Assembly (NCBI GenBank): GCA_000092065.1
Contig: CP000586.1
DNA length: 64,000 nt
DNA from: Ostreococcus lucimarinus
Lineage: Eukaryota
Strand: one strand, 5' to 3'
The translations under genes and the position numbers were made by a program. The notes under the pieces were generated by a model, which worked only from the letters and a program-made list of their open reading frames with translations, had not been told where the DNA came from and searched no databases. Shown here piece after piece: positions 32,561-64,000 of the stretch (positions are counted from its first letter, which is position 1; each line of letters starts with the position of its first letter).

Positions 32561-32681
32561 CGTTTCGAGCGCGTCTCGGCGTCGCGCGTCCCGGCGTCGC
32601 GGTGTGACGACAGTCTCGGCGACGCCACGCGGTGACTGTTCGTATTTCACAACCACCGAAACGTCACCGCGCGACGCGCGC
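32561..32681. promoter_or_regulatory. putative bidirectional promoter between the tetraspan membrane protein (-) and the WD40 gene (+)
   Basis: About 121 bp separate the divergent start codons. Confidence 0.3.
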
Positions 32682-33869
32682 ATGACGCTCGAGCCGCTCG
32701 AGCCGCGACGCGCGCCCGCCGTCGCGGACACCGATGCGCTGGTGGCGCTGGCGCATCGCGCGCGGTCCGGGAACGAGTGCACGTGCGCCACGGGGCGAGG
32801 AACGATCGTCAACTTTGACTTGCGCGAACCGAACGACGCGCGCGCGTTCGTCGTTCGAGGCGCGCGCAGGCGCGAAGTCAACGCGCTGACGTGGCGAAAC
32901 GAACACGCGCTGTTTCACGCGTCCGATGCGGTCGTCGTCGAGTTGGATGCGCGTAAGATGAGCGCCGCGGGCGACGCGGCGGTGATTCGGCGGTTCGAGG
33001 GCGCCGGAGACGTCGTCAACGGCGTCGACGTCGATCAAGACGACGCGATGCTCGCGGCGTGCGACGACGCGGGCGAGGTGATCGCGTACGATTTGTCCAA
33101 CGGGGAAATTTTGCGAAAGCTTCGCGGACACGATGGGTGCGTCACGGCGGTGGCGTTTCGAAGGAAACGCGGCGCGAGCGAGTGCGCGACGGCGTCGACG
33201 GATTGTCGCGCGATGAAGTGGGACGTCAAGGCGAAGAGCGTGCCCGTGCGGACGTGGGACGCGAGGAACGTGCTGAGCGCAGAGGATTATGATTGTGGAA
33301 AGATTACCGCGCGCGCGGAAGACGAGTCAGCGTCGATCGACGCGGGCGCGAGCGCAAAGGCGTTCAATCCGCCGATGCTGCACTCGTTGGCGTTTTATCG
33401 AGGCGAGACGAGCGAAGAAAACGCACCGGGCCTTCGCCGCGTCGCCGTCTCCGCGTGTGGTGATGGATCGGTGATCGTCTTCGATATCGATCACCCCGGC
33501 GTGAGCGGTGGATCGCGCGCATCGAAAGGTAAGAAGAAATCGTCGCTCGCGAGCGCCGGACCGTTTGCCGACGGCAGAGTCGAATGCGTCCGCCTCGGCG
33601 CTGACGGCGTCAGGGGTCACACCAACGCGGCGACGTGCGCTGATTTCGTGCCTTGGAACAGAACGGGCGACGTCATCGTGTCCGGTGGCGCGGATCGTCG
33701 CTTATTGGTTTGGAATTGGGTCGACGAGGCGAGCCACGCCGCGAGAGGCCTGCCCGTCGCGTCGATCGAGCGCGATCGCAAGATCAACGACCTCGCCTTC
33801 GCCGCGGACTCTCGCGCGATTTGCGTCGCCGACACGAGTCCGACGCTTAAACTATTCGCACTGCGCTAG
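32682..33869 (+). CDS. WD40-repeat protein
   Basis: ATG at 32682 begins MTLEPLEPRRAP…. Several WD-like repeats are present (…GHDGCVTAVAF…, …VRTWDARN…, …VIVFDIDHPG…, …VIVSGGADRRLLVWNW…). TAG is at 33867-33869. Confidence 0.6.
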   Translation: MTLEPLEPRRAPAVADTDALVALAHRARSGNECTCATGRGTIVNFDLREPNDARAFVVRGARRREVNALTWRNEHALFHASDAVVVELDARKMSAAGDAAVIRRFEGAGDVVNGVDVDQDDAMLAACDDAGEVIAYDLSNGEILRKLRGHDGCVTAVAFRRKRGASECATASTDCRAMKWDVKAKSVPVRTWDARNVLSAEDYDCGKITARAEDESASIDAGASAKAFNPPMLHSLAFYRGETSEENAPGLRRVAVSACGDGSVIVFDIDHPGVSGGSRASKGKKKSSLASAGPFADGRVECVRLGADGVRGHTNAATCADFVPWNRTGDVIVSGGADRRLLVWNWVDEASHAARGLPVASIERDRKINDLAFAADSRAICVADTSPTLKLFALR

Positions 33870-46628: not shown

Positions 46629-49600
46629 TCACGCGTCGATGTTTAAGACGCACGCGACGCCGCGTAAGATCCACGCGCTCGCGTGCTCGCTCGAGGCCAA
46701 GTCGGCTTGGAAGACGAGACCGCGACCCATGGCGTCGCGACGACTTTGAGTGAAGTACACGGGCGCTTTGAAAGCGTTCGTTGTCGATGAGGAGGAGGAA
46801 GAAGAGGGCATCGTGGTGCGTTCTATCGGGACGAGACGCAGGATGGGGAGCTCGCGCGCCAAGCCGCGGTCGCTTGGATGCGCCAGGACGCGGCGTTCGG
46901 CGTCCCAAATCGCGCCTTCGAGAAATAAACCCGAGATGTAACAGCCTATCTCGGGTTTGGCGTCGATTTCATCCGCGGAAACGTACGGGGTGACTTCCGT
47001 ATACATCGTGCTCGCGTCTAAAGGCCAACCACGAGAGCGACACGCGGTTTGAATGAGTGCCGCGATGTACGTTTCCGGGCAGTGTAAACCGCTGAGCCAG
47101 ATGACTTTTGGTTCGCCGTCGACGGCCCACGACTTGTACTGCTTCTCCCGCGTCTTGTACCACGTCATCCAAGATTGTACGTCTTTGTCTGTCGGTGGCG
47201 CGACACTTTTCCACTCCTCCGGTAAGCGCCCGCGCGAGAGTGAATCCGCGACGGCGTCGAGTTCTCGCGACATGCCGATTTCCCCACTCAGCGCCTTGAC
47301 GAGCTCTCGCAACGAGTGTCGAAGCACCAGCTTTAACGCGTTGTGACGCTCAATCTCCTGGAAGAGTACCACGGTCGTCGGCGATGGAACTTCATCTCCG
47401 CGCTGACGCTGGAGTTTTATCAAGTCAAACTCGAAATCTTCGTTCGTGACGACGTTTAAGATTTCGTTGACGATGGCGAGCAAGGCGCCGTTTCCATCGC
47501 TCGAGCCAGCGCTCTCGTCGTTCGACGAAGCCGAAATGGAGAGTTTACTCTGGAGCGATAAGACGTTAGACCATAACGCTTTCGCTGCTCGTGTAGAGTG
47601 TGCGACGTCTGCGTTGGCGTGAAGCCCGAGTACTTCAGGTGTCTGCGCGTCTGGAAGTTCATCGATGACGCGCGATTGCTCGTCGTACGAAGATTCCGGC
47701 GGCGGCAACTCATAACGAACTCGAGCTTCTTCGTCGGCGTAAAACATGAACTTGTGAAAGCCATCAAATAAGAAATCGCCAAAGTACTCGTCCAGATACG
47801 CGCTCAAGATACGTCGATCGTAATGATCGCTCACGCGTCCACCGTACATGGCCTCACCTATGAGATATTTCAACGCCGCCCACGGAATCATTCTCGAGCC
47901 GCCGCCGCCGGTGTTCACGGCGGCAACTTTGTTACAATAAGTCTTGATCAAACTGAACGAAATTCGAAAATCGGTTTCGTTGAAATCATACGCAACGTTC
48001 CATCCGAGCTTACCGTACTTTCGTCGCTCTTGCACGGCAGCGTGGAAGAAGGCCAGCACGTACGCTAAAGATCTAAAGAAAGGGTTCGCGCAACTCCCCA
48101 AGACGTCTTCGGACAATCTCGCGTACGACGCCTTCATGTTCATCTTGAGCCCGTCGGGGGGTTCTGTGACAACTTTGAGACTTTTTTGCAGAATACCGAT
48201 CGGGAACGTTTTGATCGGGTCGGTGGTGAGCCACAAACGGAAGTCTTTGTGCGGGTTCGCCAATCCGTCGACGACTTTTTCGAGCGCCGGCAGCCATTTG
48301 GGGAGAAGATGACAGTTTTGCAACATGAGCCACAAACCTCGCGAGGCGCACGTAAGAATAAGTTCCTCGGCTTTAGGTCCCATGCCTTGCCCAAGGGCCA
48401 TGAACTTCAGTTTGCCTCCTGCCTTGAATCCCATCGTTTCTCCCAACGCAAAAATATCAAACGCCGGATCTGCGCCAGGGGAGAGAATGAACACCACAGG
48501 TGTCTGCGCGGAAGACAATTTAAATATGCTTTCGTAGTCTGAAATCGGAGGCGTTACGTATCTTGAACCCATGGTTTCAGTGATGTAGTTCGACACCGCC
48601 ACCGTGACTCGATCTAATCGAGCGCAACGCAACAAGCATAGGCGCTCAAAACTGGACAGCGACGCCGAGTAACCATCTGGAAGCGCTACGGATTCGGGTT
48701 GTTCGCAGTCGTACCATGCGCGCCACGCATCGGCGTTGGACGTGATTCGATCGACGATTCCGTTTAGTGTTGCGCACTTGTCGTCATTAGCCGCGATGTG
48801 CTCGTCTAAATGCATTAAATCTTGCCAACCACGTTCGGACCACCATGGAAGCGGTTGCGAATCCCCGGAGGCGGCGTCAAGCGTGACGTTGCCCTTGAGG
48901 AAGAATCGTAGGAGGTTGCCATTCAATCGTCCATCACCGTCTTCGATTCTCGTAGTCATTTGAAACGAAAGCGCGAGTTTATCGCGCTTGAACAAACCGA
49001 GACATGCAAATTTGTACACGTCGTACGTCAACCTATCCACAAGATCACTCAAGCGCTCGTCCAGTTGATCGCGCACGGGCGTGACATGAAGCGTGTTGCA
49101 GAACACATCCAAAAAGCTCGAAAGTGAGTACTCGTACATCGCGTTGAGATTAGAGAGCGCTGAAATGACGAAGAAGAGTATCGCGCCGCGCTTTGCTACG
49201 GGAGAGTAGCACGACTGTGCCTTGTTTAACTCTTTCGCCGAACGCGCCGCCGCCACGAGCTTTTCAGAAATCTCTGTAGACTTTGTCTTCGCGCTCTCGA
49301 GTGTTTCGATGAGCTCCACGTTATCAACGATTTCACCCTGTGCGGTGGACAACTCATAAAGCAACGTGTCTTCGAGTTTCTTCAACAGTGCTCGATTCGC
49401 GACGGTTTCCTTGACGAGTTTTTCTCGCTCTGTTTCAAGATCTGGGCGCTCTTGCTTCACCGTGACATTCAAAAGTTGCTCTTGGAGCCCGAGCTCAGTG
49501 ACAGAGTAGTTGATTATAATCGTTTTACCCGTCACATCTGGATCGTAATGGGGATTTGGAAGTTTCGTCGTCATGTACAGGCGGAAGTTGTCGTCCCACT

Positions 49601-52600
49601 CAACTTCAGAATCGCCAAGCTTGATCATCTTCGCTCCGTTTGGAGCGTAGTAGAAACTCTTCTTCAGCACCGGGTCCAAAACGGGATCAATGTACTCGCC
49701 CACGTTTTCTATCAAGAATGGTAAACCATATTCAATGGCGAGCTCGAGTTGTTTCAAAAAGTCTGCGTCGGTCTGACGTTTAATCTTACCTTCGAGCTGC
49801 GCGCCCTCGCGAGATTTGATCCACTTTACCGCTTGCATCTGCGGATCGATACACAGCGGGAATCGCTCGGCGCGCATGGTGAGTATACCGTTTTGTACGC
49901 TAAGCTCATCACCTGGCAACCCTTCGGCGAGCCAAGAATTCATTTCGTTGTCATCTGTGAGTAACGCTTGGAGTCTGAATGGTTGACTCAACGGTATGCC
50001 GAGCTCCAGCAAATTCTTCTCAAGATGATCGTGAACGAATTGTTTACGAAACTCGTACGTAAACGTTCCAGCGTACGACAAGAACGCGGAAGTGATCAAA
50101 CAATCGCCAACAAGTCGCTCTTTACGGGAATTCAGTTCTTGCATCTCATTCGTCCATCTGACCTTTTCGCTCGACAGTCCCGAGATGAGTCGTTCGGCGG
50201 CGGCGAGACGGTTCGCCATTAGCTCGGCACTTTCCTTCAAGTCTTGCTGACGCGCGCTCTTCTCTTCGAACTGCGTGCTGAGTTGCTTTAGCTCGATCTG
50301 TAAGCTCTTTAACTCAGACTTCGTTTCAACCAATTCGCGTTCTTTAATCTTCAACGTCTTCTCCGCGTTTGCGACGGCGGCGCGCTTTGGATTCACCATG
50401 CGAGCAACTTTGTTGTAATTAATCATAGCAAACACCCATTTCAGCAGACCGGCACCAGCAGTCGAAATCTTCATCACTTCATCGGGCTTGAATTTTGAGT
50501 CTTTTGTGTACTCGCGAATGGCTTTCATCTGTTTTTCTTTGATGCCATCCTTGTCAAACTCGACGAGAGATCTTAAGAAATTTGTATCTGCCATCATGCC
50601 TTTCGCTCCAGACCACGAGACGTTCGGCAGTCCTTTGAGAATCATCACACATTCACATACTCGCTGAACCGCGATGTTTGGCTTAGAAAACGATCGGATT
50701 TCGGTAATCTCGTCCTTTTTCAGATTATTCAACGCCGCGGCGGCTTCTTCGAGAGCAGGGATTGCCGCCTCTAAGTCTGCCTCAGCTTCCGTCTTTTCCT
50801 TCGCGATACGCGCTGAATCATTGATGAGATCTTCTTCTTTACTCGTTGCGTTAGCTGCTTTAGTTTCGACTTCCGCCGTGCGCTTCGTGATGCGATCTAG
50901 TAAAGCATCACACTCCTTCGCTTGCTGCGTGACGACGATTTGCGCGTCGTTGAGCTTCGTCCGCATTGCGTCCACTTCGGTGCTCGCCTGTATTAATTTG
51001 TCGAGACCACCACGCAAACGTTTGATTGAAGTTTCAATTGACGCGCGCTGCGTCTTAAGCATTGCTTCATAGGCGGCGATAAAGTCCAAATAATGCTTCG
51101 GAGTGACGTAGTTGTGTCTCTTCAGCTGTGATTTGAACTTTTCGTTGAGAGCAATCGCCGAGCAGTGCGTGTGCACGACGTGCACGTTAATCTTCTCCGC
51201 GAACTGTTCTGGCAAATCTACGTTTATGAGTAATGAAGTGCTTACTTCGAGCAATGCTTCTTTCGGCCATTCTGTGAACCAGTCGATAACAGTGTTGTTC
51301 ACCAATCCGGGGAAGTTTCTGCAACGGTGACGCAACGTATCGCCGACGGGAGACATGGCGAGGACGATGTGCAAGTTCTTTCGGCAACGCGAAATAAAGT
51401 ATCGCCAACCTTCATCGCGCGTGACAGAAATTTTATTCGCGTGCAAATCGTCACGAATCGCATTCACCAAAGCGTCCTTCTCTTCATCGGCGAACAACGC
51501 GGGAACCGTACCCGTGGTGAGCATGTTGTTGATTAACTCCAAAAATCCTTCCTCAACGACGTGGTTGTCGGTGAAAAGAAACATCGTGGGATGATTTTGC
51601 ACCCCAAGTACGTTGTATAGCTTTTTCAAGTCCTCCCTGAACGACTCATCGTTGTAGCCACGCGTCAGCGTGATCTCAAACACTTCACAACCCGCCATAT
51701 CAGCGGCGAGATGCGCGAGCGATTGTTTGCCGCTTCCGCCGACGCCGACGAGAAGCGCATGTCCATTTTCTGTTCGAAGTACGCGATGAATACGCGTGAT
51801 ATGCTCTAGCGCATGATCAAACAAGACTAGTTTAGTCGGTGCTGAGCCATCGCTGAGTTTGGCGTTACGACGATTGATGAGGTCCTCGAACCAAGGTTTG
51901 ATGGTGGCGTAATCGCCAACGTCAGCGTACGAGCGTAGTCGACTAGAAGGATCGACTTCATCTGACGATCCACTTCCATCGATTTGTTTTAGTGGACTGT
52001 AGTCGGCGAATAAAATCGGGTTGGATGTGATCGGCGAAGTGTCATCAGTACACCCATGGCGAATAAGTGACGATACTTTTCCCAGTACGAAGTCGCGATC
52101 TTTGTCCGCAATCAACCTATCGTGAAACACGCGAATCGATTCGTTTCGCCACAGGCGCAAGAAATCTGGGGTGTTTCGAACTTTTGCTGACGTCGCTTTC
52201 GACATGCCCTCGAACAAGCGACTTAAGTCGCGAAGGTTAAAGATGTAATGAAATCGGCTCGGCGTCGGCAAAAGTTTGGAGACGACGCTCTTATATAAAT
52301 CCAAAGTCATATCTACGACGAGTTCGTGCGTCCCGGGCTTGAGAGCCAGCGTTTTTGACGTATTCGTTATGATTGAACCATAAATTACCTTAAGATTGGT
52401 CTCATCCGGGGTCTGCATTTCGAATACTTGGAACATTGAAACAAAGCGTGGGTCCACAACGCTTCGTGCGCCGCCGGGATGCCCCATGGCTGCGATGTAC
52501 TGAATATCCTTCATCTGCAGCCAATTCAAATCACGTCCGCGGTCGTACGTGCCTCCACGGCCAATCATGAGTTTTAGCAACGCGATTGGTTGTTGCGTAC

Positions 52601-55600
52601 CGTACTTATCGACGGCAGGCATGTTCAAATCGTCCACGAAGCACAATAAACGCTTGCCGACGGGTGGACCCACCGTGTCCTTCGTGCGCTTGTCCAGCAC
52701 ATCCATGAGCGAGCTATGCACATCATTTGCGGTCGTACGAGAACTGAAATTCATCGTCACCGTGTTCGTCTTTCCATCTTGCAATCTCTTTTGTAAATAG
52801 TTCTTCACGACAACAGTTTTACTTGTTCCGCTATCGCCGGTGAGAAGCGTATGCGCGTCACAAGAGCACATGAGGTCGATTAACCAGTTTGTGCGAACCG
52901 TGTGCGCGGTTGAAACCAAGAGCGACGAAAATGGAGTGTTTGGTGGCACCTCGAGTGGAGTGGTGAGACTTTTCCATTCGTACCACGTGTTACGAGTGAT
53001 ATCAAAGCCATAATCATACAACGTCGCGCCCGCCGGCAAAACGTTGCCGAAATTGGCGAGTCGCCTAACGAAGTCATCGAATCTCGCACGATCAGAGTTT
53101 CCAGACGTTTCAACGATAGTCGCACCGAATGACCACACTAAGCAGAAGATAAAAGCCGATTCGATCGCCCGAACGTAGTCATCATCCTGGCTCGTCTCCA
53201 CGTCGCTGGTGGAGTCATCGAGAGCTTCCAAAAAGCTTTGCATCAAAATGGTGAACTGTTTTACCACAGATATCACCGGTCGATCGATCGACGTTCGCAC
53301 GATTGAAATCATTCGCCCGTCAAGTTCTGTGCCGTCGTAGCAAAATGCCGTCATTCTATCCATGTACTTGTCAAACATACGCAATAACGTTTCGCGGTGC
53401 TTGGCGCCGACACCTTCGGACCAAGTCTTGAGGAACGGTTTGAAGCCGAGATTCTTGGGGTCTACGTACACCATTCCGCAACGACTTACAGTGGCTGGAG
53501 AAGCATACTTTAAGTCGGCCACCTCAAACAAAAGCTTGCAATGGTCTTGAAGACGAATCCGCTCACCGTTTGGCAACGTCAGTAGGCGATTATCGTCCAT
53601 TACGCTATTCATATTTTCGACCCAAACTGCGTCGACATCGCCATCAAATACTATATACTTGAAGTCGTTCTCACGTCCAATAGCCATCGGTTTGTTGCAC
53701 TCGCGAAAAATATTCGAAAGAAGACCATCAGTCCAATCTCGCGTATCCGGATCCAATTCGCCATAGAGTTCGGCCACCGTTTGCGCTTTTGGATTTAGAG
53801 TGTACAACTTCGTATTTCGACCCATCGTAGTTTGCGCGCGAGCGATTGTTTCAAGCATGACAGACTTACCTCCACCAGTCTCGCCGACTAACATCGTCGT
53901 ATGCCTCGTCAACATAGTCTCATACAACTGAATAATTTTGTCCACTTGCTCGCCCGGGCGCGTCAACACTTGATAGCCATGCTTGGCCAAGTCTTGTTCA
54001 ATGACATCGTTGAGAGTAGGATATCGAACACGCGGGCAGTCTAGTCCAGGGAATAAATCGGCGATCAGACCCAAAAAGAGTGGGACATCGTCGAATACAA
54101 ACTTTGGCAGATTCATATCCCTCAACGCTCGCATGAGAACTACCTCTTCGGCGAGCTCGGGCGCATCGCGCTTCAGCGCGCCAGCCATGACGAGCACCGA
54201 TTTAAGCGCGCGTAAACCGAAATCATAATGCGATCTTTTGCTAAGTTGCTCTTTAGCCAGGCGGTACAGTATCGTCATCTTCTTCGCGAGAGCTTTCGCC
54301 GCGTTGAAACCTTCGCTAAAGAGCATAATTTCACAAATTTGCTCCAAATCCGGCACAATCATAGTAACGGGGCGGAACAGAGCCTTCAAGTTATCCGGAA
54401 GTTCGGTTCTACCCGCATACCCAGGATTCATAGTGATGAAAATACCGGTGCGTGCGTCGCAATTGATTTCTTTTCCTTCAAACTGGAATCGTGACAAATT
54501 GTGCTTCAACGCTTCTTGAATCTGCTTAATTTGCGATGAGACGACGGACAGCACCTCAGCCTCAATGCGATTGAACTCATCGAAGCATCCCCACGCGCCG
54601 CACTGCACAAGACCACTAAAAATGGCCCCCATAGCTTTGTAGTCTAATCCTTCACCACAATTGAACACGACGCAAAGCAAAGCCATGGACTTTGCCAAAT
54701 CCTTTGTGGTCTCCGTCTTTCCTGTGCCCGCGGGCCCGCTCGGGGCACCGCCGAGTCTATACGTCAGCGCCGTAGTGAGCGTGATATAGCAGCGGTCAGT
54801 TAGACCAGTGATTACGAGACGCCCATTCAAACCCATGTACTCGTAACCATATCTGAATTCACCACTGCACTGATTGATGACGATGTCGTCGCGTGCCTTG
54901 TCCCACTTGAAACGAAGTTGCGACTCCCACGCAAAATCTGACTCATCTAAAACAGAATCTCTAACGAAAGAGTCGATGATGTCTCGCGCGTGGACGTCAA
55001 TGATGATCAACGTATTCACTTTTTTTCGTTCGCACGAGCTAAGCTCGCCTCGAACCATTTTCGTGAGAACCTCGAGTTGCGACGAGAGCTTGTCGCTGTA
55101 ATTCCGCATGGCGAGTTTATCGCCCGAGCGAATCGATTTGAATACGTTTTGCACTTCCCAGGTCCACCAAATTTGCGACCCCACAAGGGTGATCATTCCA
55201 AGCTGTTCTTTTATCCATTCTTCACGATCGCACGTCATGTATCGCGCGACTCCATACTTGCACAACGCGCGTAAGGTTGCCCGCATCTCTTCTTCGACGG
55301 CAGACATCCAATCCTCAACAGGGCCTTGAATTTTTACGGGCGACTTGAACTTGAACGATTCCCCCTCTGCGGACGTAATCCCGACTACGCACGCTTTATC
55401 AGACGTAAACGTCAGCTTTGCACAGTTGTCAAACAGCTTCAACATGTGCTCCTGAATTAGTGTCGGATCGGCAGCACCTAAAATTGAAAGCAGCTCCTCG
55501 TCGGAGATGAAGAAGAAGCGCGGAAACGCGTCCCGCTTTGTGTCTAAATATTGACTCAAACTCTTTTGACATATCTCCAGCTCCTCGCGAAGGTTCTTCA

Positions 55601-58600
55601 GCGTTTCTAAGCGCCCTTCGGATTTGCACATGTCTAAAACGAATTTAGTCTTCACAGTTTCCGCCATGAGTTTGCGTATTTCAGTATCGATGTTGTCAAA
55701 ACGATCAGCTTCCTCAGGAAGCTGCGTGCGTATGTCGTCTGAGCCACCAAAAATGCTGAGTAAGTACATCCAACGTTGCTGCGTGTCGATCCACACCTGT
55801 AGAACATTGGCCACTAATGCGAGCGTTCCTTCCCACTCGCGCACGCTTTCGATGAGCGGATCAGCATACCGACTTGCCGACATACTCTGCAAAGTTAATC
55901 CCGTGTCTTCGAGCGCGAGCGTAATTTCTTCCACGGCGCAAAGCACGTACGTGGGCTGCGCGTGCTTCTTGCTTTTGCCTTTGGAGTAAGGTCTAAGATC
56001 AAAGCGCATTTCTCGCCATGATCGATCGATCGCGATTAAGTCGTTTTCAATTTTTAGCTCCTTCTCTGCCGCCGCTGTAATGTCCATGATTTTTTGCGCG
56101 TGCGCGTGAAGTTTCATCTCACTCAAGTGTCGCATCGAGAGTTGCGCGCTCTTTACGGTTTCGTCGTCAAAATCAACAGTCTGAAACACAGACTTCCAGT
56201 GACGAGGTCGAATTGCATCAACTTTCAAGCTTTCGATGAGGTTCAAATCAGTTTCGATGTCGTCAATTTCTTCCCGGACAGCCGCAAAGAGGCGATGCGA
56301 ATGAAGACTCTTCGGAAGCGTCGAGAGCTGCGTTCGACCAAAAGCCACGACAGAGGCGTACACGTTCGCGACGACCAACTCTGGAACGAGCGTTTCGTAA
56401 AATTGTCGCAACTGACCTCGATACGCTCGTTGACATTCGTATATCTTTGCCATGGAATCCAAATCAGTTTTTGCTTGCTCAAGCGATTCAAACGAGCATT
56501 GATCGACGCCAAAGACGCGCTCACTGTCTCTAATATCGGCCAATGCATCCAATCTACCGAGAATTTCTTCTTTAAACGTCTCAAAACTTTCGAAGCCGGC
56601 GTCTAAATTTAGCAAAAGATCGGCGCATGTCGGGCCTTCAGCCTTGAGCCTGTTCGCGAAGCCATCACATTCCTCCTGAAATAGGCGCGCCGTTCTTTTC
56701 AGTTCCGTCTTGAAGTCTGAAATCTTCAACGTCATGCCTTCGTAAACACGTTCGGCGCGCGCGCGGAGCTTTTCAAAAGATGGAATCGTCGCCGATGCGC
56801 GCTCAAGATCAGAGGGATCGTGTTCTATCCTGTATTTCATTCTCACGGCAAATCGATCGTTCACTCCACTTGCCGTCACTTCGGTCGCGGTGTTTTCGCG
56901 CACATCTCTGACCGTCTTTACCAGATTCTTCATGGTGAGGAAATCACGTGCGTCGACTGAAAATGTATTCTCGCATGCCGCCATGTGCTCGTAAAGGTCA
57001 TTCAGGAGTTTGACGTCAGCATGATACGTCGCGGCACCGATGTCTTTGATCCACTGAGCGCTCTTGTTCTTAATGAGGGTGGTCAATTTGTCGGCTCGCA
57101 CCCGCACAGCGCCGATGTCCACGCTCGCGTCCTCATCCATGGCTTTCATGACGTCCTCGTATCTAAGTAAAGCGCGTTGAAGACTCAATGCGTTCATATT
57201 TTCCGTATGTTTTTCGATCACGAGATCTTTGTCGTCTTTCCACACGGCTTGGTATCGCTTCCACACTTCCATCTGGCGGCGGATTTCACCCGCAAAGAGA
57301 TGTGAGACGTTGCTCAAAGAGCTCATCGCGTCGCACACGCGTTCGTTCGCTGAAACCTCATTCCCAAAGTTGAACGCATGAGTCACCGTGTTTGATGCGT
57401 CATCGTCGAGTTCTATGGCAAGTAAAGTGGAGAGGCTCAAATCTGAGCTCGAAGTTGCTCGCCGCGTGGGCATCCCCACACAAGTGCCGTCCATCCATCG
57501 GCCGAGCACTGAGGCGGCATTTGCAATGGATTTCGCCGCGTATGCAATGGATCGAATGAGCTCTTTCAACGGCGGTTCGCACACGATTTCTCCCGCTCGC
57601 AGAGTTATATTTAGTTTAAACAGAGTGATGTTCGAAGGGAGCGACTTGTCAAAATACTCCCTTAATCGAAGAATGTTCCGCTCCGCAGCGAGAACGAGAG
57701 CGTCGTAAATCTCGCTCTCCCAATAGGCATAGTATTCCCTCAAATGCACAACCTTCCCGGTGCGTGTGCCGAAAACGATTTCTTCGACACAAAGCAAAAG
57801 ATTCATGATGTTGACGTATTCCTCTCGCACTACCGAAGCCGTTTTGCTGCATTGCGCGGCGAGTTGAGCGAACAGTTCGCCGCTTTCGCGCTCAACGCCG
57901 GATTTTGACAGTGCTTCACAATCGACGAATGATGAGACCGAGATCTTTTTCACTGACCGCTCTAGATCGCCAGCGTGCGTTCGCACGCCATCTATAACAG
58001 TTGTAAAGTCCTTAAGTTCCGTTGTGTACGCCGCGACAAAGTCAGGAATACCCAAAGAGTTCCAATTATACGTCTTCAGTCCTCGATGAAGAGACGCGCT
58101 ATTCAGTACCGCCACGCGCGTGCGGAAGAGTTGACGCTCCAGTGGTGACAGTGAATCGAGTACGTCGCGACGATGAGCGAGCATTTTACTAAGCGTGCAT
58201 CTATAAGCGCTGTATTTTTCGCTTTGCAATGCCACGCCACGCGCCTCTGCTGGGATGTCGAAGCCAAGTCGTTCCAGATTTCGAGTCTCCTTGATTAGGC
58301 TTGTGAGCGCTGGGTGGAAATTCATAATCACGTCGTCCCCACTCTCATTCTTCGATAATATAGGTTGCATAAGGCATGATGTCAAAGTAGAGTCTATTTC
58401 TTCTTTCCAAGTTAACACGCGCTGCTTCTCGTAGTTCATGATAAGTTTTGCCAAGGCTAAAAACTTTGCGTTCACCTCTTGCGCCGCCGGCGTGTCGCGA
58501 ATACCTCGTTGATCCTCGACGCACGCGTTGAACGATTTCATGGTAACTCGCAGCTTGTAAAACAGTGATCTTACCCAATGAATCGATCCACTTACGGTTG

Positions 58601-60569
58601 GTTGGTCGCGATTGAGCGGTGGTGAGCGGCGGTGACTGTTGAAGATGTGCCGGGTCGAATCGATCTCGCGAGAAAATTGCTCAAGGACGTCTTGCATCTT
58701 GCCAAGAATTTGACTGTTTAGTGTCATACGCGTCGATCCAGACAGTACTTCGTCGTCGTCCGCGTGCATTGTACTTTTCAGCTCTTGAACGAGCGCGAAC
58801 GCTCCCGCACTACTGCGCAACCTCTTGAAGCATGCGTCGATGAAGTTACACAGCGCGCGTTCGATGCGCGTCTTTTCCATCACGAAAGACTTGTGCATCG
58901 CCTTCCAACTCGCTGCGTTCGCCGAGTCGAAGATGTCTAGCTGCGACATTTCAATTGTAAGGCAAAGCGCATCCACTCGCGCAGAGATTTCGTCCACGCC
59001 GTCGGCATCGAGAGTCACTGCTTTGAGACGCGGACTGAGAAACGTGCGGAAATCACTCACTACGATAACCATTTCGCTGAATTCCGCACAAACGTCCGCA
59101 ACGTAATCCGACTTCATGAACAAGCGTTCGCGATCAAACTCCCACCTTGAATCCCTATTTGAACGTTCGATTTCTTCTCGCGCGTTCAAATATTCGCTCT
59201 TCCAAGATTCCATAATCGACTTTGAGAGTTGTACGTCGCGCAACGTGGCGTGCGCCCCAAGTCCGCTCGACGCTTGGGCAAACAGTTCCTGGTAGTTTAC
59301 CGATTCGCGAACACGATGAATGAGCGCATCTGACAGGCGTTCTAATAGGGAACCCATTCGAGAGTCGTCACTGTAGTGGTGCGAAATTACCCAAACCATT
59401 CGAAGTGCGCGAAGCGTCGGCGCGATGGCGCGGAGCACGTCCGGCAACAGCGCCTCACTCAACACTTTGAAATGACTCTCGAGCGTGGACAAAAACTTGA
59501 TGTTGTCAGCACTCACGCTGTGTAAGTGTGTGATTTCTCCCAAGAGCGTTTTAAACGCCGACGCGACGTTGCGCACGCGAGACGAAAATTCATCGACAGA
59601 AGCAGTGTGCTTCGCCGCAAATCGTTCCAGCACGTCCAACACAATGTCCATGCTCGGATCGGAGAGCTGCGTCACCAAACCTGACAAGTCGTTATGTCGC
59701 GCGCGCCACAGACGAATCTCCACTAGCGGTCCTTCGTTTGCCCCTGCACATTCTTCCGTGATCACGCTTTCGCTTTCGTTCCTCGTCTTCGCCGCCGACA
59801 TCACCGCGCACCACTCAACCGCCGCAGCTTCGAGCTGACGCACGAAAGCCTCGTCTTCACACGCCTTGGCGGGATCGATGTCGCAGAGTGCACGACCCGA
59901 CGCCCCGCCCGCCTTGACGACGCTTTTCAGTGACGCCTCTGGACTCTGAACTGGGGCGTTTACGCCTTGAATCCCATCCAAAAACTCCCGCACATGCTTC
60001 GCAAAGGATTGACTCTCCGTCGACGCACTCGACTCGAACGCGGATACGAATGAGCACTGTAAAGTCGCGTGAAGCTCGTCCATCGACGCCCCGTGCGGAA
60101 GGAAGCCGTACATCGCACTCCGCAAATCATCGAGTCCGATCGAATTTTCGTCGTTCACGCAGTCCGGACGCACGATGAACAACACAGGCTGTTTTGGATC
60201 GCACTCGCCGTCCGCGACGAGCTCGAGCCGAGGTCGCCGAGGCGAGTCTTCCCGCGCGCCTCCATCACTCTTGACGACGCCGGCGTTCGTCGAGTCCGCG
60301 AGCGCGTGCGAAGTGATGGAGGACAACGTGAGTCCATTCATCGTCTTCGCCCTCGCTTTCACCGTCGAAGTCGCGCGAAGCCGCAGCACGAGCACGTCCT
60401 CGCGTCCGCAATCGAGAAAGTCCAAGGTCTTTGCGCGCGAACCGTCACCGAACCCCACGACGTGTTCGTCGATGTCGGCGTCGACGCACGACGATGCGAG
60501 ACGAAGTATAAAGGCGACGCGCGCATCTGGTTCCTCGGCGCCATCCTCGCCGTCGTCTGCGCACGTCAT
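46629..60569 (-). CDS. dynein heavy chain, axonemal type (~4646 aa), apparently intronless
   Basis: A single 13.97-kb ORF. AAA1 is GPAGTGKTETTKDLAKSMALLCVVFNCGEGLDYKAMGAIFSGLVQCGAWGCFDEFNRIE; the TETTKDLAK form is typical of axonemal rather than cytoplasmic-1 DHC. AAA2–4 P-loops (GETGGGKS…, GDSGTSKT…, GVGGSGKQ…), the coiled-coil stalk, AAA5/6 and the C-terminal domain follow. The listed start is TTG at 60602; the first ATG is at 60567-60569. TGA is at 46629-46631. Confidence 0.9.
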   Translation of the reverse strand: MTCADDGEDGAEEPDARVAFILRLASSCVDADIDEHVVGFGDGSRAKTLDFLDCGREDVLVLRLRATSTVKARAKTMNGLTLSSITSHALADSTNAGVVKSDGGAREDSPRRPRLELVADGECDPKQPVLFIVRPDCVNDENSIGLDDLRSAMYGFLPHGASMDELHATLQCSFVSAFESSASTESQSFAKHVREFLDGIQGVNAPVQSPEASLKSVVKAGGASGRALCDIDPAKACEDEAFVRQLEAAAVEWCAVMSAAKTRNESESVITEECAGANEGPLVEIRLWRARHNDLSGLVTQLSDPSMDIVLDVLERFAAKHTASVDEFSSRVRNVASAFKTLLGEITHLHSVSADNIKFLSTLESHFKVLSEALLPDVLRAIAPTLRALRMVWVISHHYSDDSRMGSLLERLSDALIHRVRESVNYQELFAQASSGLGAHATLRDVQLSKSIMESWKSEYLNAREEIERSNRDSRWEFDRERLFMKSDYVADVCAEFSEMVIVVSDFRTFLSPRLKAVTLDADGVDEISARVDALCLTIEMSQLDIFDSANAASWKAMHKSFVMEKTRIERALCNFIDACFKRLRSSAGAFALVQELKSTMHADDDEVLSGSTRMTLNSQILGKMQDVLEQFSREIDSTRHIFNSHRRSPPLNRDQPTVSGSIHWVRSLFYKLRVTMKSFNACVEDQRGIRDTPAAQEVNAKFLALAKLIMNYEKQRVLTWKEEIDSTLTSCLMQPILSKNESGDDVIMNFHPALTSLIKETRNLERLGFDIPAEARGVALQSEKYSAYRCTLSKMLAHRRDVLDSLSPLERQLFRTRVAVLNSASLHRGLKTYNWNSLGIPDFVAAYTTELKDFTTVIDGVRTHAGDLERSVKKISVSSFVDCEALSKSGVERESGELFAQLAAQCSKTASVVREEYVNIMNLLLCVEEIVFGTRTGKVVHLREYYAYWESEIYDALVLAAERNILRLREYFDKSLPSNITLFKLNITLRAGEIVCEPPLKELIRSIAYAAKSIANAASVLGRWMDGTCVGMPTRRATSSSDLSLSTLLAIELDDDASNTVTHAFNFGNEVSANERVCDAMSSLSNVSHLFAGEIRRQMEVWKRYQAVWKDDKDLVIEKHTENMNALSLQRALLRYEDVMKAMDEDASVDIGAVRVRADKLTTLIKNKSAQWIKDIGAATYHADVKLLNDLYEHMAACENTFSVDARDFLTMKNLVKTVRDVRENTATEVTASGVNDRFAVRMKYRIEHDPSDLERASATIPSFEKLRARAERVYEGMTLKISDFKTELKRTARLFQEECDGFANRLKAEGPTCADLLLNLDAGFESFETFKEEILGRLDALADIRDSERVFGVDQCSFESLEQAKTDLDSMAKIYECQRAYRGQLRQFYETLVPELVVANVYASVVAFGRTQLSTLPKSLHSHRLFAAVREEIDDIETDLNLIESLKVDAIRPRHWKSVFQTVDFDDETVKSAQLSMRHLSEMKLHAHAQKIMDITAAAEKELKIENDLIAIDRSWREMRFDLRPYSKGKSKKHAQPTYVLCAVEEITLALEDTGLTLQSMSASRYADPLIESVREWEGTLALVANVLQVWIDTQQRWMYLLSIFGGSDDIRTQLPEEADRFDNIDTEIRKLMAETVKTKFVLDMCKSEGRLETLKNLREELEICQKSLSQYLDTKRDAFPRFFFISDEELLSILGAADPTLIQEHMLKLFDNCAKLTFTSDKACVVGITSAEGESFKFKSPVKIQGPVEDWMSAVEEEMRATLRALCKYGVARYMTCDREEWIKEQLGMITLVGSQIWWTWEVQNVFKSIRSGDKLAMRNYSDKLSSQLEVLTKMVRGELSSCERKKVNTLIIIDVHARDIIDSFVRDSVLDESDFAWESQLRFKWDKARDDIVINQCSGEFRYGYEYMGLNGRLVITGLTDRCYITLTTALTYRLGGAPSGPAGTGKTETTKDLAKSMALLCVVFNCGEGLDYKAMGAIFSGLVQCGAWGCFDEFNRIEAEVLSVVSSQIKQIQEALKHNLSRFQFEGKEINCDARTGIFITMNPGYAGRTELPDNLKALFRPVTMIVPDLEQICEIMLFSEGFNAAKALAKKMTILYRLAKEQLSKRSHYDFGLRALKSVLVMAGALKRDAPELAEEVVLMRALRDMNLPKFVFDDVPLFLGLIADLFPGLDCPRVRYPTLNDVIEQDLAKHGYQVLTRPGEQVDKIIQLYETMLTRHTTMLVGETGGGKSVMLETIARAQTTMGRNTKLYTLNPKAQTVAELYGELDPDTRDWTDGLLSNIFRECNKPMAIGRENDFKYIVFDGDVDAVWVENMNSVMDDNRLLTLPNGERIRLQDHCKLLFEVADLKYASPATVSRCGMVYVDPKNLGFKPFLKTWSEGVGAKHRETLLRMFDKYMDRMTAFCYDGTELDGRMISIVRTSIDRPVISVVKQFTILMQSFLEALDDSTSDVETSQDDDYVRAIESAFIFCLVWSFGATIVETSGNSDRARFDDFVRRLANFGNVLPAGATLYDYGFDITRNTWYEWKSLTTPLEVPPNTPFSSLLVSTAHTVRTNWLIDLMCSCDAHTLLTGDSGTSKTVVVKNYLQKRLQDGKTNTVTMNFSSRTTANDVHSSLMDVLDKRTKDTVGPPVGKRLLCFVDDLNMPAVDKYGTQQPIALLKLMIGRGGTYDRGRDLNWLQMKDIQYIAAMGHPGGARSVVDPRFVSMFQVFEMQTPDETNLKVIYGSIITNTSKTLALKPGTHELVVDMTLDLYKSVVSKLLPTPSRFHYIFNLRDLSRLFEGMSKATSAKVRNTPDFLRLWRNESIRVFHDRLIADKDRDFVLGKVSSLIRHGCTDDTSPITSNPILFADYSPLKQIDGSGSSDEVDPSSRLRSYADVGDYATIKPWFEDLINRRNAKLSDGSAPTKLVLFDHALEHITRIHRVLRTENGHALLVGVGGSGKQSLAHLAADMAGCEVFEITLTRGYNDESFREDLKKLYNVLGVQNHPTMFLFTDNHVVEEGFLELINNMLTTGTVPALFADEEKDALVNAIRDDLHANKISVTRDEGWRYFISRCRKNLHIVLAMSPVGDTLRHRCRNFPGLVNNTVIDWFTEWPKEALLEVSTSLLINVDLPEQFAEKINVHVVHTHCSAIALNEKFKSQLKRHNYVTPKHYLDFIAAYEAMLKTQRASIETSIKRLRGGLDKLIQASTEVDAMRTKLNDAQIVVTQQAKECDALLDRITKRTAEVETKAANATSKEEDLINDSARIAKEKTEAEADLEAAIPALEEAAAALNNLKKDEITEIRSFSKPNIAVQRVCECVMILKGLPNVSWSGAKGMMADTNFLRSLVEFDKDGIKEKQMKAIREYTKDSKFKPDEVMKISTAGAGLLKWVFAMINYNKVARMVNPKRAAVANAEKTLKIKERELVETKSELKSLQIELKQLSTQFEEKSARQQDLKESAELMANRLAAAERLISGLSSEKVRWTNEMQELNSRKERLVGDCLITSAFLSYAGTFTYEFRKQFVHDHLEKNLLELGIPLSQPFRLQALLTDDNEMNSWLAEGLPGDELSVQNGILTMRAERFPLCIDPQMQAVKWIKSREGAQLEGKIKRQTDADFLKQLELAIEYGLPFLIENVGEYIDPVLDPVLKKSFYYAPNGAKMIKLGDSEVEWDDNFRLYMTTKLPNPHYDPDVTGKTIIINYSVTELGLQEQLLNVTVKQERPDLETEREKLVKETVANRALLKKLEDTLLYELSTAQGEIVDNVELIETLESAKTKSTEISEKLVAAARSAKELNKAQSCYSPVAKRGAILFFVISALSNLNAMYEYSLSSFLDVFCNTLHVTPVRDQLDERLSDLVDRLTYDVYKFACLGLFKRDKLALSFQMTTRIEDGDGRLNGNLLRFFLKGNVTLDAASGDSQPLPWWSERGWQDLMHLDEHIAANDDKCATLNGIVDRITSNADAWRAWYDCEQPESVALPDGYSASLSSFERLCLLRCARLDRVTVAVSNYITETMGSRYVTPPISDYESIFKLSSAQTPVVFILSPGADPAFDIFALGETMGFKAGGKLKFMALGQGMGPKAEELILTCASRGLWLMLQNCHLLPKWLPALEKVVDGLANPHKDFRLWLTTDPIKTFPIGILQKSLKVVTEPPDGLKMNMKASYARLSEDVLGSCANPFFRSLAYVLAFFHAAVQERRKYGKLGWNVAYDFNETDFRISFSLIKTYCNKVAAVNTGGGGSRMIPWAALKYLIGEAMYGGRVSDHYDRRILSAYLDEYFGDFLFDGFHKFMFYADEEARVRYELPPPESSYDEQSRVIDELPDAQTPEVLGLHANADVAHSTRAAKALWSNVLSLQSKLSISASSNDESAGSSDGNGALLAIVNEILNVVTNEDFEFDLIKLQRQRGDEVPSPTTVVLFQEIERHNALKLVLRHSLRELVKALSGEIGMSRELDAVADSLSRGRLPEEWKSVAPPTDKDVQSWMTWYKTREKQYKSWAVDGEPKVIWLSGLHCPETYIAALIQTACRSRGWPLDASTMYTEVTPYVSADEIDAKPEIGCYISGLFLEGAIWDAERRVLAHPSDRGLARELPILRLVPIERTTMPSSSSSSSTTNAFKAPVYFTQSRRDAMGRGLVFQADLASSEHASAWILRGVACVLNIDA

Positions 60570-60692: not shown

Positions 60693-61295
60693 ATGATTGA
60701 AGAATTGGAAGCGTACGCGAAGGAGAGCAAAGTGGATGATTTATTCCGGGATATGATGACTGGGTGTTTCAAGAAACGACCGAGCGCGCCGGTGACGTAC
60801 ATCTTGGAGTACCTCGCGAGCGAGTACCCAGAGGAGAGTTTGACGCACGCGCGCGCGTTCGTAGACTTGAAGGATGGGATCACGAGCGCGAACGTGGCGG
60901 TGGACGAAGACGAAGACGGCGCGCACGATGTTGTCGTTGAAGATATCGATGAAAAACATGAGATCGTCGAGGCGCCGCTGACGTCACCCAAGGACGTCCC
61001 CGCGAAGGCGACCGACGTCGTCGCGGAGGCGATCGAGGACGTGGCCGTTGAGGGCGAGATATTACCGGACGAAGCACAACATCTCATGGCGCCAGAGGAG
61101 GGCGCACACGTCGACGTCGTCGTCGATAAGCCCGATGAGCGCGTCGAGGAGTGCGAAAGTGTCGCCGAAGAGCCCGTCGACGCGGACGCAGGTGAGGAAG
61201 AGCAAAAAGAAGAACCACCCGTCGTGACGCCCGCGAGTGAGGAAGCTGTCGAATCGATTACGAATGCGGAGAACGTGGAGGATGCACCAAACTAA
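60693..61295 (+). CDS. RIIa/DPY-30-like dimerisation-docking domain protein with acidic tail (possible flagellar/axonemal protein)
   Basis: The N-terminus reads MIEELEAYAKESKVDDLFRDMMTGCFKKRPSAPVTYILEYLASEYPE, which fits the RIIa/Dpy-30 helix-turn-helix motif (…RP..P…FL..YL). The remainder is D/E-rich. ATG is at 60693 and TAA at 61293-61295. It is divergently paired with the dynein gene. Confidence 0.55.
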   Translation: MIEELEAYAKESKVDDLFRDMMTGCFKKRPSAPVTYILEYLASEYPEESLTHARAFVDLKDGITSANVAVDEDEDGAHDVVVEDIDEKHEIVEAPLTSPKDVPAKATDVVAEAIEDVAVEGEILPDEAQHLMAPEEGAHVDVVVDKPDERVEECESVAEEPVDADAGEEEQKEEPPVVTPASEEAVESITNAENVEDAPN

Positions 61296-62653
61296 ACTAA
61301 AGCGCTAATGCTATCTAAAACGCGTTTCACCGCGCGTTTGTCGCTCAAGACCGTCAACGCGGGTCTGTACCGTTTTAATAAGTTCAACTCGTCCTTGCTC
61401 AAGTCGCCGATTTCCTCGCCCCCGGCTCGATGTTCATCGCGATCAAACTCACTCAAAATTCGTCGAGCGACTGCGTCGCGATCGTCGTCGACGTTGATCC
61501 ATGCGTAGCGCGATTCGCCGCGAAACCACGTGAATTGACGTTTCGCGTACGCGCGATTGAGCATCTGAATCTCATTCACCAGCTCCAATAACGACGCGTC
61601 GTCGACTTTGATCTCCTTCGCCCGAGCCTTTGCCAAGTACTCCATCGCCTGCCGGTAACCGATGGACCGCGCCGGGACGTTTTCTCCCGGCGCGATTCCA
61701 GCATTCAATAACCACGCGGCTTCATCCATGATTCCATCTACAAACATACCCTCCACGCGAGCGTCAATTTTTCGATACAGCTCGACGCGCGGCGAAGATA
61801 AAAAGAAACATCTAAAATCAAACCGCGCCTCAGGATTCTCGCGCGCGAACGCCTTGACGCTTTGCCCGCTCGTGCGCACGATTTCGTACGCTCGCGTCAA
61901 TCGATACCAATCGTTTTCGCTCAGCGTCTTCCCCGTCTCCGCATCTCCCGCGCGCGTCAACAACTCCACGGCTTCGCGCCACCCCCCCCGCGCTCTCGCC
62001 TCGCCCACGGCGCGTTCCGCCGCCTCTCGCGTCTCTGGCGTCGACCCCGGCGCGCTAGGTTTCCCATCCGTCAACCACTTCAAATACATCCCCGCACCGC
62101 CCACGACGACCGCATCGCGCCCTCGTCGATGTATATCGTCGATCACGTTTACGGCTTCGTCGTAATACGCGTTCGCGTCGTACTCTCCACTCCCATCTCT
62201 CGCGCGCGGATCCAGCGCGCTCAGCATGTGATGCGCGCACGCTTCGAGCTCCCGCGCGCCCACTTTCCCCGACCCGACGTCTAATCCGCGATATATTTGC
62301 ACCGAATCGCACGACACGATTTCAACCTCGCGCGCGTCTCGTCGCTCTCGTCGCGCGCGCGCCATGGCGATCGCGACCGCGCTCTTCCCGATCGCCGTCG
62401 GTCCCGTGACGACGAGCACCTTAGCGCGCCGCGTCGCGCGCGCGATTCCGTCGTCTCCCTCGCGCCCTGGATCAACGTCGCGCGCGCCGTTCGCGTCGGC
62501 ATTCGCACTCGCACTCGCATTCGCATTCGCATCGACGCGCGTCGTCGTCGTCGCGCGTCGTCGTCGTCGCGGCGCCCCGCACGCGGTCCAGCGTTTCGTC
62601 GCGCTCGCGCCGATGCGCTCGAGCCACGTCCGCGCGCCGCACGCCGCGCGCAT
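61292..62653 (-). CDS. tRNA dimethylallyltransferase (tRNA isopentenyltransferase, MiaA/Mod5/IPT)
   Basis: P-loop region KVLVVTGPTAIGKSAVAIAMA is followed by EIVSCDSVQIYRGLDVGSGK and …VVVGGAGMYLKWL…. The N-terminal ~75 aa are low-complexity and presequence-like. ATG is at 62651-62653 and TAG at 61292-61294, reverse complement of CTA. Confidence 0.8.
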   Translation of the reverse strand: MRAACGARTWLERIGASATKRWTACGAPRRRRRATTTTRVDANANASASANADANGARDVDPGREGDDGIARATRRAKVLVVTGPTAIGKSAVAIAMARARRERRDAREVEIVSCDSVQIYRGLDVGSGKVGARELEACAHHMLSALDPRARDGSGEYDANAYYDEAVNVIDDIHRRGRDAVVVGGAGMYLKWLTDGKPSAPGSTPETREAAERAVGEARARGGWREAVELLTRAGDAETGKTLSENDWYRLTRAYEIVRTSGQSVKAFARENPEARFDFRCFFLSSPRVELYRKIDARVEGMFVDGIMDEAAWLLNAGIAPGENVPARSIGYRQAMEYLAKARAKEIKVDDASLLELVNEIQMLNRAYAKRQFTWFRGESRYAWINVDDDRDAVARRILSEFDRDEHRAGGEEIGDLSKDELNLLKRYRPALTVLSDKRAVKRVLDSISALV

Positions 62654-62697: not shown

Positions 62698-64000
62698 ATG
62701 GACGTCGACGACGACGACAGCGACGACGACGGCGCGCGAGCGCTCGCGAGCGCGCGTCCGACGCTGTGTTACCCGGGTCGGCTGACGTCGCGCCGAGAGT
62801 CGCGCGCGTTCGCCGACGCCGGCGCGCGCGGCGCGCACAAGGTTGGCGGCGCGCCGGTGGCGCTGACGGCGGACGGCGACGACGACGGCGACGACGGCGA
62901 CGACGACGGCGACGCGGCGACGCGGTGGTACGCGCCGCGGTGCGCGTCGTGCGCGCGCGCGATGACGCTCGTCGTGCAGACGTACGCGCCGAGAGGAGGT
63001 CGCGGACGGGCGCTGTACGCGTACGCGTGCGTCGGCGGCGGCGCGGCGTGTCGAGGAGACGACGCGTGGGCGTGCGTCAGCGCGACGTCGATCGCGGCGC
63101 GCGCGGACGCGAGCGAAGAGCGCGGGCGCGATGGCGAAACCACGACGCGCGACGGCGGTGGCTCGCGCGCGCGCGCGACGAACGGCGTCGAGACGTACGG
63201 GACGGCGGAACGCGCGCCGGCGATGGAGGACGCGTGGGACGATCCGGAATCGAGCGCGTGGTGCGACGACGGCGCGGACGCGGCGGCGCTGAGCGCGGAA
63301 TTAGATGCCATGTTGGTGTGCGGGGTAGGGCGCGCGGAAGGACGCGCGGAAGGGCGCGCGGAGGCCGCGATGACGCCCGGCGACGAGGACGAAGACGATG
63401 GCGATGGCGACGACGACGCCGCGAGACAAGAAGACGGTTTTTCTTTGTCACGGATCGTGCGCGAGGCGTACGACGCGGCGTGCGCGACGCAAATAGTAGA
63501 ATACCACCTCGTGTCCGAGATTGAGCCGAAAGCGGTCAGCGGGATGACGGTGAAGGAAGCGGCGCACGCCGAGGCGCTCCTGGCGCGATACGCCGAACGC
63601 GAAGGCGTCTCCGTGACGGACGTCGTCGCCATCGATGACGAGGATGGCGAGTGGGCGGGAGAGACGTACGAGCGTGGCGAAGCACGACATGCGGATGATG
63701 CGTATTTAAAGTTCGCCCGCCGTCTGCAGCGCGCGCCTGATCAGTGCATGCGATACGACGTCGGCGGCATGAAGTTCATCTGGCCGACGAAGACGCCGCC
63801 ACCGTCAACTTCGTGCGATCGCTGCGGCACCACGCGCGTGTGCGAGCTTCAACTCACTCCGGCACTTTTGCGAGACGTTGAAGATGCGTTGTCGATGCAC
63901 AAGGGCGATAAATCGCGCCTCGCGAGCGAAGAGGATCTCTTGGGCTGGGATTGGCAAACCGTCTGCGTGTTCGCGTGTCCAAACGACGCGTGCGTCGTCC
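62698..64000 (+). CDS. programmed cell death protein 2 (PDCD2/Zfrp8/Tsr4)-like, partial (C-terminus beyond window end)
   Basis: ATG at 62698 begins MDVDDDDSDDDG…LCYPGRL…WYAPRCASCARAMTLVVQTYAP, a PDCD2 N-region with a MYND-like Cys motif. A long acidic insert follows, then the PDCD2_C domain: …YDVGGMKFIWPTKTPPPSTSCDRCGTTRVCELQLTPALL…DWQTVCVFACPNDAC. It is not in the ORF track because it is truncated and lies in a frame distinct from the listed R-rich ORFs. Confidence 0.7.
   Translation, partial: MDVDDDDSDDDGARALASARPTLCYPGRLTSRRESRAFADAGARGAHKVGGAPVALTADGDDDGDDGDDDGDAATRWYAPRCASCARAMTLVVQTYAPRGGRGRALYAYACVGGGAACRGDDAWACVSATSIAARADASEERGRDGETTTRDGGGSRARATNGVETYGTAERAPAMEDAWDDPESSAWCDDGADAAALSAELDAMLVCGVGRAEGRAEGRAEAAMTPGDEDEDDGDGDDDAARQEDGFSLSRIVREAYDAACATQIVEYHLVSEIEPKAVSGMTVKEAAHAEALLARYAEREGVSVTDVVAIDDEDGEWAGETYERGEARHADDAYLKFARRLQRAPDQCMRYDVGGMKFIWPTKTPPPSTSCDRCGTTRVCELQLTPALLRDVEDALSMHKGDKSRLASEEDLLGWDWQTVCVFACPNDACVV

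Follow-up and report, generated by a model that had tools for sequence, protein, structure and literature searches.

Introduction

Four-nucleotide ATGA overlaps between a stop codon and a start codon are known from bacteria, where the two genes lie on the same strand, share a polycistronic mRNA, and are translationally coupled. Overlapping gene expression also reportedly occurs in the compacted genomes of microsporidia and nucleomorphs, as Williams et al. are said to have described in 2005; in these parasites and endosymbiont remnants, intergenic loss drives start and termination signals into adjacent genes, often with multigene read-through transcripts. Closer relatives of the case described here come from the Mamiellales. 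In Ostreococcus lucimarinus, overlapping opposite-strand genes have been termed "known," and overlap of 3′ ends from opposite strands over-clustered 8.9% of EST clusters (PMC2367439). Likewise, O. tauri RNA-seq assemblies concatenate owing to overlapping UTRs (PMC4378021). Convergent overlapping pairs (COPs) also exist in Micromonas, where they are a feature of low-GC regions and have upstream intergenic distances of ~0.9–1.3 kb (PMC4815162).

Here, we analyzed a 64,000-nt stretch of DNA from O. lucimarinus CCE9901 ("the window"), in which a small plus-strand gene and a minus-strand gene for a tRNA dimethylallyl(isopentenyl)transferase (IPT) form a convergent, opposite-strand, protein-coding pair with overlapping ends. 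The pair has much in common with the earlier Ostreococcus reports (PMC2367439, PMC4378021), i.e., the same genus, a genome with intergenic regions of <200 bp, and convergent neighbors with overlapping 3′ ends. However, those reports deal with overlapping transcripts or UTRs as a general phenomenon and do not describe this pair, whereas here the coding sequences (CDSs) themselves touch and their stop codons share bases. Like the Micromonas COPs, it is a tail-to-tail coding pair of the Mamiellales with 3′ UTRs predicted to overlap, but it has neither the low-GC surroundings nor the ~1-kb upstream distances of that class, since it lies in DNA of normal GC content (59%) and its upstream neighbors are 123 and 44 nt away. 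Unlike microsporidia and nucleomorphs, the organism is a free-living alga, and a single convergent pair is involved. The likeness to bacterial ATGA overlaps extends to a compact genome and to 4 nt that include a stop codon; however, the arrangement here is stop-over-stop, on opposite strands and in separate eukaryotic mRNAs. This opposite-strand layout rules out translational coupling of the bacterial type. The pair is therefore a slightly extreme case of the convergent overlapping genes of Mamiellales and not a new type of system.

Results

The plus strand reads AAC TAA ACT AA at positions 61290–61300, with the small gene ending in GAT GCA CCA AAC TAA and IPT, on the other strand, in GCT TTA GTT TAG. 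The original prediction had placed the two stop codons at 61293–61295 (TAA) and 61292–61294 (plus-strand CTA) and had put the CDS overlap at 3–4 nt. Both stops were borne out by direct reading of the sequence and by the ORF coordinates, and the overlap is exactly 4 nt (61292–61295) when the stops are counted, 2 nt of which (61293–61294) are common to both stop codons (Table 1). Each stop occupies the wobble base of its partner's final sense codon (Asn AAC on the plus strand, Val GTT on the minus strand), and there is zero overlap between sense codons of the two genes. Because of the genetic code, YTAR (CTAA, CTAG, TTAA, or TTAG) is the sole arrangement in which stop codons on opposite strands can share bases. 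Many independent marine metagenome contigs encode identical proteins, with the 4-nt overlap called there too, and a 31-nt exact-match scan of JGI metagenome contigs recovered the exact junction sequence in four of them. Therefore, the overlap is not a sequencing artifact.

Table 1. Features of the small gene/IPT locus and its neighbors (positions in the window).
Feature	Position	Strand	Remarks
Dynein heavy chain (DHC) gene, 4646 aa from first ATG	46629..60569	-	Divergent from small gene
Small-gene CDS (200 aa)	60693..61295	+	Stop TAA 61293-61295; ORF list
RIIa/Dpy-30-like docking/dimerization-type domain, N-terminal 66 residues	60693..60890	+	PDB profile search
CGTAA, candidate one-base UGUAA variant	61258..61262	-	30 nt past IPT stop, within small-gene CDS
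IPT CDS (453 aa)	61292..62653	-	Stop TAG (plus-strand CTA 61292-61294)
Common tetranucleotide CTAA	61292..61295	.	Both stops, plus the wobble positions of the two final sense codons
IPT last 10 sense codons	61295..61324	-	Unusually A/T-ending (GC3)
TCTAA, candidate one-base UGUAA variant	61314..61318	+	19 nt past small-gene stop, within IPT CDS
TGTAC, candidate one-base UGUAA variant	61366..61370	+	71 nt past small-gene stop
PDCD2_C-domain gene	62698..64000	+	Divergent from IPT; continues past window end

The identity of the minus-strand gene as a tRNA-IPT, as proposed from the letters alone, was upheld on several grounds. The ORF matched Pfam PF01715 (IPPT) with E = 3.1e-56 over residues 119–379 (191.2 bits vs. 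a cut-off of 23.6), and this match spanned profile positions 1–242 of 243. Homologues include a "tRNA isopentenyltransferase" of O. tauri and plant IPT9. Both the P-loop (GPTxxGKS/T) and the DSxQ motif (here DSVQ) are present, and residues G84, T86, G89, K90, D116, S117, V118, and Q119 were invariant among 17 aligned homologues. By homology, the enzyme probably acts on A37 of tRNA. Its C-terminus, which ends in RYRPALTVLSDKRAVKRVLDSISALV immediately before the stop, is conserved in the homologue alignment; it stops at the identical column in O. tauri, as it does in most of the remaining homologues from Mamiellales. Divergence from O. tauri over residues 422–453 (dN = 0.25) is close to that of the whole gene (0.27). 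These last 32 residues carry the motifs K-RY-RP and L-D-R-I-R, whose conservation extends either from Ostreococcus as far as land-plant IPT9 or throughout Mamiellales. The C-terminus of IPT is not over-extended. The reference model, ABO96865.1 (348 aa; "predicted protein, partial"), is 100% identical to part of the 453-aa ORF and comprises only its residues 74–421, ending 32 codons ahead of the ORF's stop. Since this model lacks both ends of IPT, the overlap is missing from the public annotation. The curated O. tauri protein, CEF98535.1, has the C-terminal tail, and its CDS directly abuts that of its neighbor.

The 200-aa product of the small gene is identical to ABO96627.1/XP_001418334.1 of O. 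lucimarinus CCE9901 and consists of a ~65-residue N-terminus that is highly conserved across Mamiellales, followed by a variable, acidic tail. The original prediction called this an RIIa gene. A profile of the N-terminal domain searched against the PDB had its best match in FAP385, a Chlamydomonas radial-spoke protein (7jtk, 8glv; E = 3.1e-5 over 42 residues), with weaker matches to the D/D domain of PKA RI-alpha (E = 0.094) and to AK7 and DPY30 (E of 0.2–0.9). Pfam Dpy-30 scored below its cut-off (E of 0.035–0.09), and Pfam RIIa (PF02197) gave no match, even at E ≤ 10, with the full protein or with the eight N-terminal domains. Thus, a docking domain of RIIa/Dpy-30-like type, nearest to FAP385, would be a fair description of the N-terminus, and the RIIa label is only partly right. 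An AF2 model of the protein placed four helices at residues 3–11, 16–23, 32–44, and 46–60, but it was weak (pTM 0.18), with block means of pLDDT of 56–76 over residues 1–70 and an overall mean of 51.9; a fold search would have asked too much of it, and the domain was therefore assigned from sequence profiles. From approximately residue 70 on, pLDDT was low and the tail is predicted to be disordered. The reading frame of the tail is retained in eight lineages, the only differences from L016, a close haplotype, are in-frame indels (3, 3, and 27 nt), and its dN/dS is ~0.5, for which reasons the tail is translated under weak constraint. A check of both C-termini for over-extension past an earlier stop or splice, as had been proposed, thus found the end column of IPT and the tail of the small gene to be kept, and over-extension of either was not found.

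Eight Mamiellales lineages share the arrangement DHC(−)/small gene(+)/IPT(−)/PDCD2_C gene(+), and in all of them the convergent junction is tight (−4 to +31 nt). The tail-to-tail gap is −4 nt in O. lucimarinus and its close haplotype L016, both of which have the junction CTAA, and also in L022, where the junction is CTAG. Because both C-termini of L022 differ, its overlap is independent in origin. The gap is 0 nt in O. tauri, where TGA is directly followed by CTA and the curated annotation accepts both CDSs as abutting, and +2, +9, +25, and +31 nt in L019, L024, L023, and L017, respectively. In these loci, a neighboring convergent pair (RING/UPF0060) is separated by 65–136 nt. The window holds six further convergent pairs, spaced at 43, 60, 67, 77, 88, and 131 nt; the small gene/IPT value is the lowest of the seven. 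All of these pairs are too close for non-overlapping transcripts, and small gene/IPT is the extreme. On the outer sides, 123 nt separate DHC from the small gene and just 44 nt separate the ATG of IPT from that of the PDCD2_C gene. The GC content is 0.59 for the window and 0.48–0.66 locally around the pair.

Since both stops are real, any 3′ UTR of either gene must lie inside its partner's CDS and the convergent transcripts are predicted to overlap, as was originally proposed. This follows from the geometry of the junction and agrees with the transcript overlaps reported for the genus (PMC2367439, PMC4378021). Indeed, convergent 3′ overlap is ordinary for the O. lucimarinus genome and no special feature of this pair. 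The four JGI contigs recovered in the junction scan are genomic, and none has a poly(A) run or an end near the junction. The main poly(A) signal of O. lucimarinus is UGUAA, which accounts for 30–40% of sites, and one-base variants of it account for a further ~29% (PMC6413133). In the window, TGTAA occurred four times within 100 nt past stop codons vs. 0.19 expected from its frequency in CDSs (~20-fold), at positions +4 to +33, which points to short 3′ UTRs. Canonical TGTAA was not found downstream of the small gene or IPT here and is absent at these places in nearly all lineages. Candidate one-base variants are present downstream of both genes (Table 1). Of those following the small gene, TCTAA has a counterpart at a comparable position in seven of eight lineages, and TGTAC falls where IPT encodes the conserved RYR motif. 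The junction was also considered as a possible hairpin terminator or structured RNA, but this was rejected, as it folded no better than shuffled sequences (z = 0.35 and 0.45) and has no inverted or direct repeats and no credible Rfam match.

The last 10 sense codons of IPT have a GC3 of 0.30, the lowest value for the final 10 codons among 28 ORFs (mean, 0.69). Read as IPT sense strand, this segment is rich in U; on the plus strand, it holds several stop triplets. It includes an A/T-rich block of rare codons, TTA GAT AGC ATT AGC, at 61304–61318. In the form TTA GAT AGA ATT AGA, the block encodes the peptide LDRIR, and its opposite strand reads UCUAAUUCUAUCUAA. The block (TTA GAT AGA/AGC ATT AGA/AGC) is kept at the nucleotide level in six of seven lineages and includes the longest uninterrupted run (17 nt) over which O. 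tauri, L024, and L017 agree. In L022, the overlap is present and the block is absent. Identity of codons for the same amino acid is 0.59–0.61 in the IPT tail, slightly above the gene average of 0.52, and is higher still in the catalytic-motif regions; third-position conservation in other IPT segments equals or exceeds that of the tail, and synonymous divergence of the tail from O. tauri is saturated (pS = 0.86). Synonymous-site constraint was accordingly dropped as a sign of embedded signals, as the tail is saturated and only the five-codon block stands out. Signals for 3′-end formation embedded in the IPT codons would fit the data, but the case for them is weak, because other segments are equally conserved, pS is saturated, and the block is missing from L022 despite its overlap.

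Discussion

In our judgment, there is a probability of roughly 80% that the junction arose by neutral, deletion-driven compaction, to the point of maximum overlap without loss of an amino acid from either protein. The spacer between the convergent small gene and IPT would have been lost by deletion, a process ending at the 4-nt overlap. A YTAR overlap of this size would restrict just the wobble base of each final sense codon, both of which would have to be NNY, and any overlap deeper than 4 nt would couple sense codons of both genes. A deletion-biased, drifting junction may tend to accumulate at or near −4 nt (n = 2 independent cases) because YTAR limits wobble bases alone while a deeper overlap ties sense codons. 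The −4 state occurs both as CTAA and as CTAG, and the C-termini differ between the two. The fast-evolving, acidic tail of the small gene would read on into the A/T-rich, stop-rich end of IPT, and each mRNA would form its 3′ end within its partner's coding sequence, probably via degenerate UGUAA-like signals and the A/U-rich final codons of IPT. Short 3′ UTRs and a convergent transcript overlap of roughly 50–150 nt would be the expected outcome, and a regulatory purpose need not be assumed.

A selected overlap, in which the tight junction serves reciprocal regulation by transcriptional interference or sense-antisense pairing, appears unlikely to us, and the same holds for its particular form, a functional tail-to-tail natural antisense pair with, e.g., reciprocal diel expression. 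It would account for the tightness of the pair in every one of the eight lineages while the adjacent RING/UPF0060 pair keeps its wider spacing in the same loci, and reciprocal regulation has been suggested for the convergent overlapping pairs of Micromonas (PMC4815162). However, the junction varies in gap size, in stop codons, and in the C-terminus of the small protein, gene order in the region is widely conserved regardless, and every convergent pair of the window is near enough for its transcripts to overlap, so that this one does not stand out. Moreover, a tRNA-modifying enzyme and a docking-domain protein have no evident functional link, and the junction RNA resembles its shuffles in folding (z = 0.35/0.45) and is devoid of inverted repeats and Rfam matches. 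A literature search yielded no statement that Argonaute and Dicer are missing from Ostreococcus, an absence that would account for a tolerance of sense-antisense RNA, and this point does not enter the argument.

That the overlap is an artifact of the gene models, with one C-terminal extension left untranslated because it is spliced out, follows an earlier stop, or is non-coding, is in our view highly improbable and is largely refuted by comparison across lineages. Such an artifact could be suspected from the partial ABO96865.1, which ends at ORF residue 421, 32 codons short, and from the low-complexity, predicted disordered, and poorly conserved tail of the small protein. However, two conserved motifs, K-RY-RP and L-D-R-I-R, lie among the residues missing from ABO96865.1. 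In O. tauri, the curated CEF98535.1 includes this tail, with its CDS meeting that of the neighbor. The ~135-codon tail of the small gene is open in eight lineages, and at ~3.5% stop triplets we estimate that a tail would be open by chance in <1% of cases per lineage; its indels preserve the frame, each being a multiple of three in length, and dN falls below dS. A dual-use coding sequence, in which codons of each partner would also encode 3′-end signals for the other, the A/T-rich block would be retained both for LDRIR and for RNA processing, and YTAR would be a recurrent state, is a doubtful possibility. If true, it would represent a long-lived dual-use coding sequence in a free-living eukaryote, and the YTAR stop-over-stop would be an end point at which compaction had arrived independently in two forms, CTAA and CTAG.

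Earlier work on Ostreococcus and Micromonas has documented convergent transcripts that overlap (PMC2367439, PMC4378021, PMC4815162), and the finding is mainly a point of annotation and context. It demonstrates that convergent CDSs of O. lucimarinus can share stop codons, and it offers a conserved locus, tractable in O. tauri, for work on Pol II termination and polyadenylation where there is no intergenic DNA. For the annotation itself, the reference model of the O. lucimarinus tRNA isopentenyltransferase is truncated at both ends and calls for correction.

Results and discussion

The small gene that converges on the tRNA isopentenyltransferase (IPT) gene encodes a variable acidic tail behind its N-terminal RIIa/Dpy-30-like domain, and this tail is a local hypervariable coding segment. 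When the tail (window 60890-61295, plus strand) was compared with its counterpart in L016 (3200-3582), a close haplotype of the O. lucimarinus type, dS was 0.22 and dN 0.11, and in-frame indels of 3, 3 and 27 nt were present, whereas dS in the flanks was 0.07-0.08; the 5' half of IPT was 100% identical. Divergence of the tail is, that is, far above that of its flanks in two near-identical haplotypes.

Relative to the conserved 453-aa ORF (window 61292-62653, minus strand), the NCBI reference IPT protein (ABO96865.1 / XP_001418572.1; 348 aa, labelled 'partial') is short by 73 residues at the N-terminus and 32 at the C-terminus, and the annotation of ABO96865.1 should be lengthened to match this ORF. 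Since only 44 nt separate the ATGs of IPT and the divergent PDCD2_C-domain gene (Table), IPT is squeezed at both ends, and neighbouring coding sequence must also be entered by promoters and 5' UTRs. GC content around this gap is 70-82% (62350-63000).

Across the whole window, TGTAA, the main poly(A) signal of O. lucimarinus (UGUAA in RNA), was enriched ~20-fold directly 3' of stop codons (4 observed vs. 0.19 expected in the first 100 nt, at +4 to +33). This site frequently takes the form TGTAACA on one strand of a convergent pair and TGTTACA on the opposite strand (e.g., 3975 and 12470), which hints at shared, near-palindromic 3'-end regions.

On its other side, the small gene lies beside a dynein heavy chain (DHC) gene. 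The best similarity of its N-terminal domain was to the radial-spoke protein FAP385, and adjacency of the DHC and FAP385-like genes is kept in 8/8 lineages (Mamiellales loci with the same gene pair, O. lucimarinus included), suggesting that the two genes share a bidirectional promoter and may be functionally linked. It is a known puzzle that Ostreococcus lacks a flagellum yet retains inner-arm I1 dynein heavy chains (PMC2239267).

Features adjoining the convergent pair and other overlapping ORFs in the window
Feature	Coordinates	Strand	Arrangement
DHC, 4646 aa	46629-60569	-	head-to-head with small gene (60693-61295, +); gap 123 nt
Gap, IPT to PDCD2_C-domain gene	62654-62697		44 nt between ATGs (IPT, -; PDCD2_C, +, 62698 onward)
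Divergent ORFs 31802..32683 and 32682..33869	32681-32684	-/+	first ATGs have two bases in common (CATG)
Long opposite-strand ORFs	12516-13610 / 13180-20160	-/+	5' ends overlap 431 nt, first ATGs used

Two further overlaps involve 5' ends (Table). Two readings fit the CATG site: translation really begins at internal start codons, or the arrangement mirrors the stop overlap in head-to-head form. For the longer overlap, one gene model, or its start, is probably wrong; GC periodicity of the minus-strand ORF is of a weak coding type (0.56/0.54/0.63).
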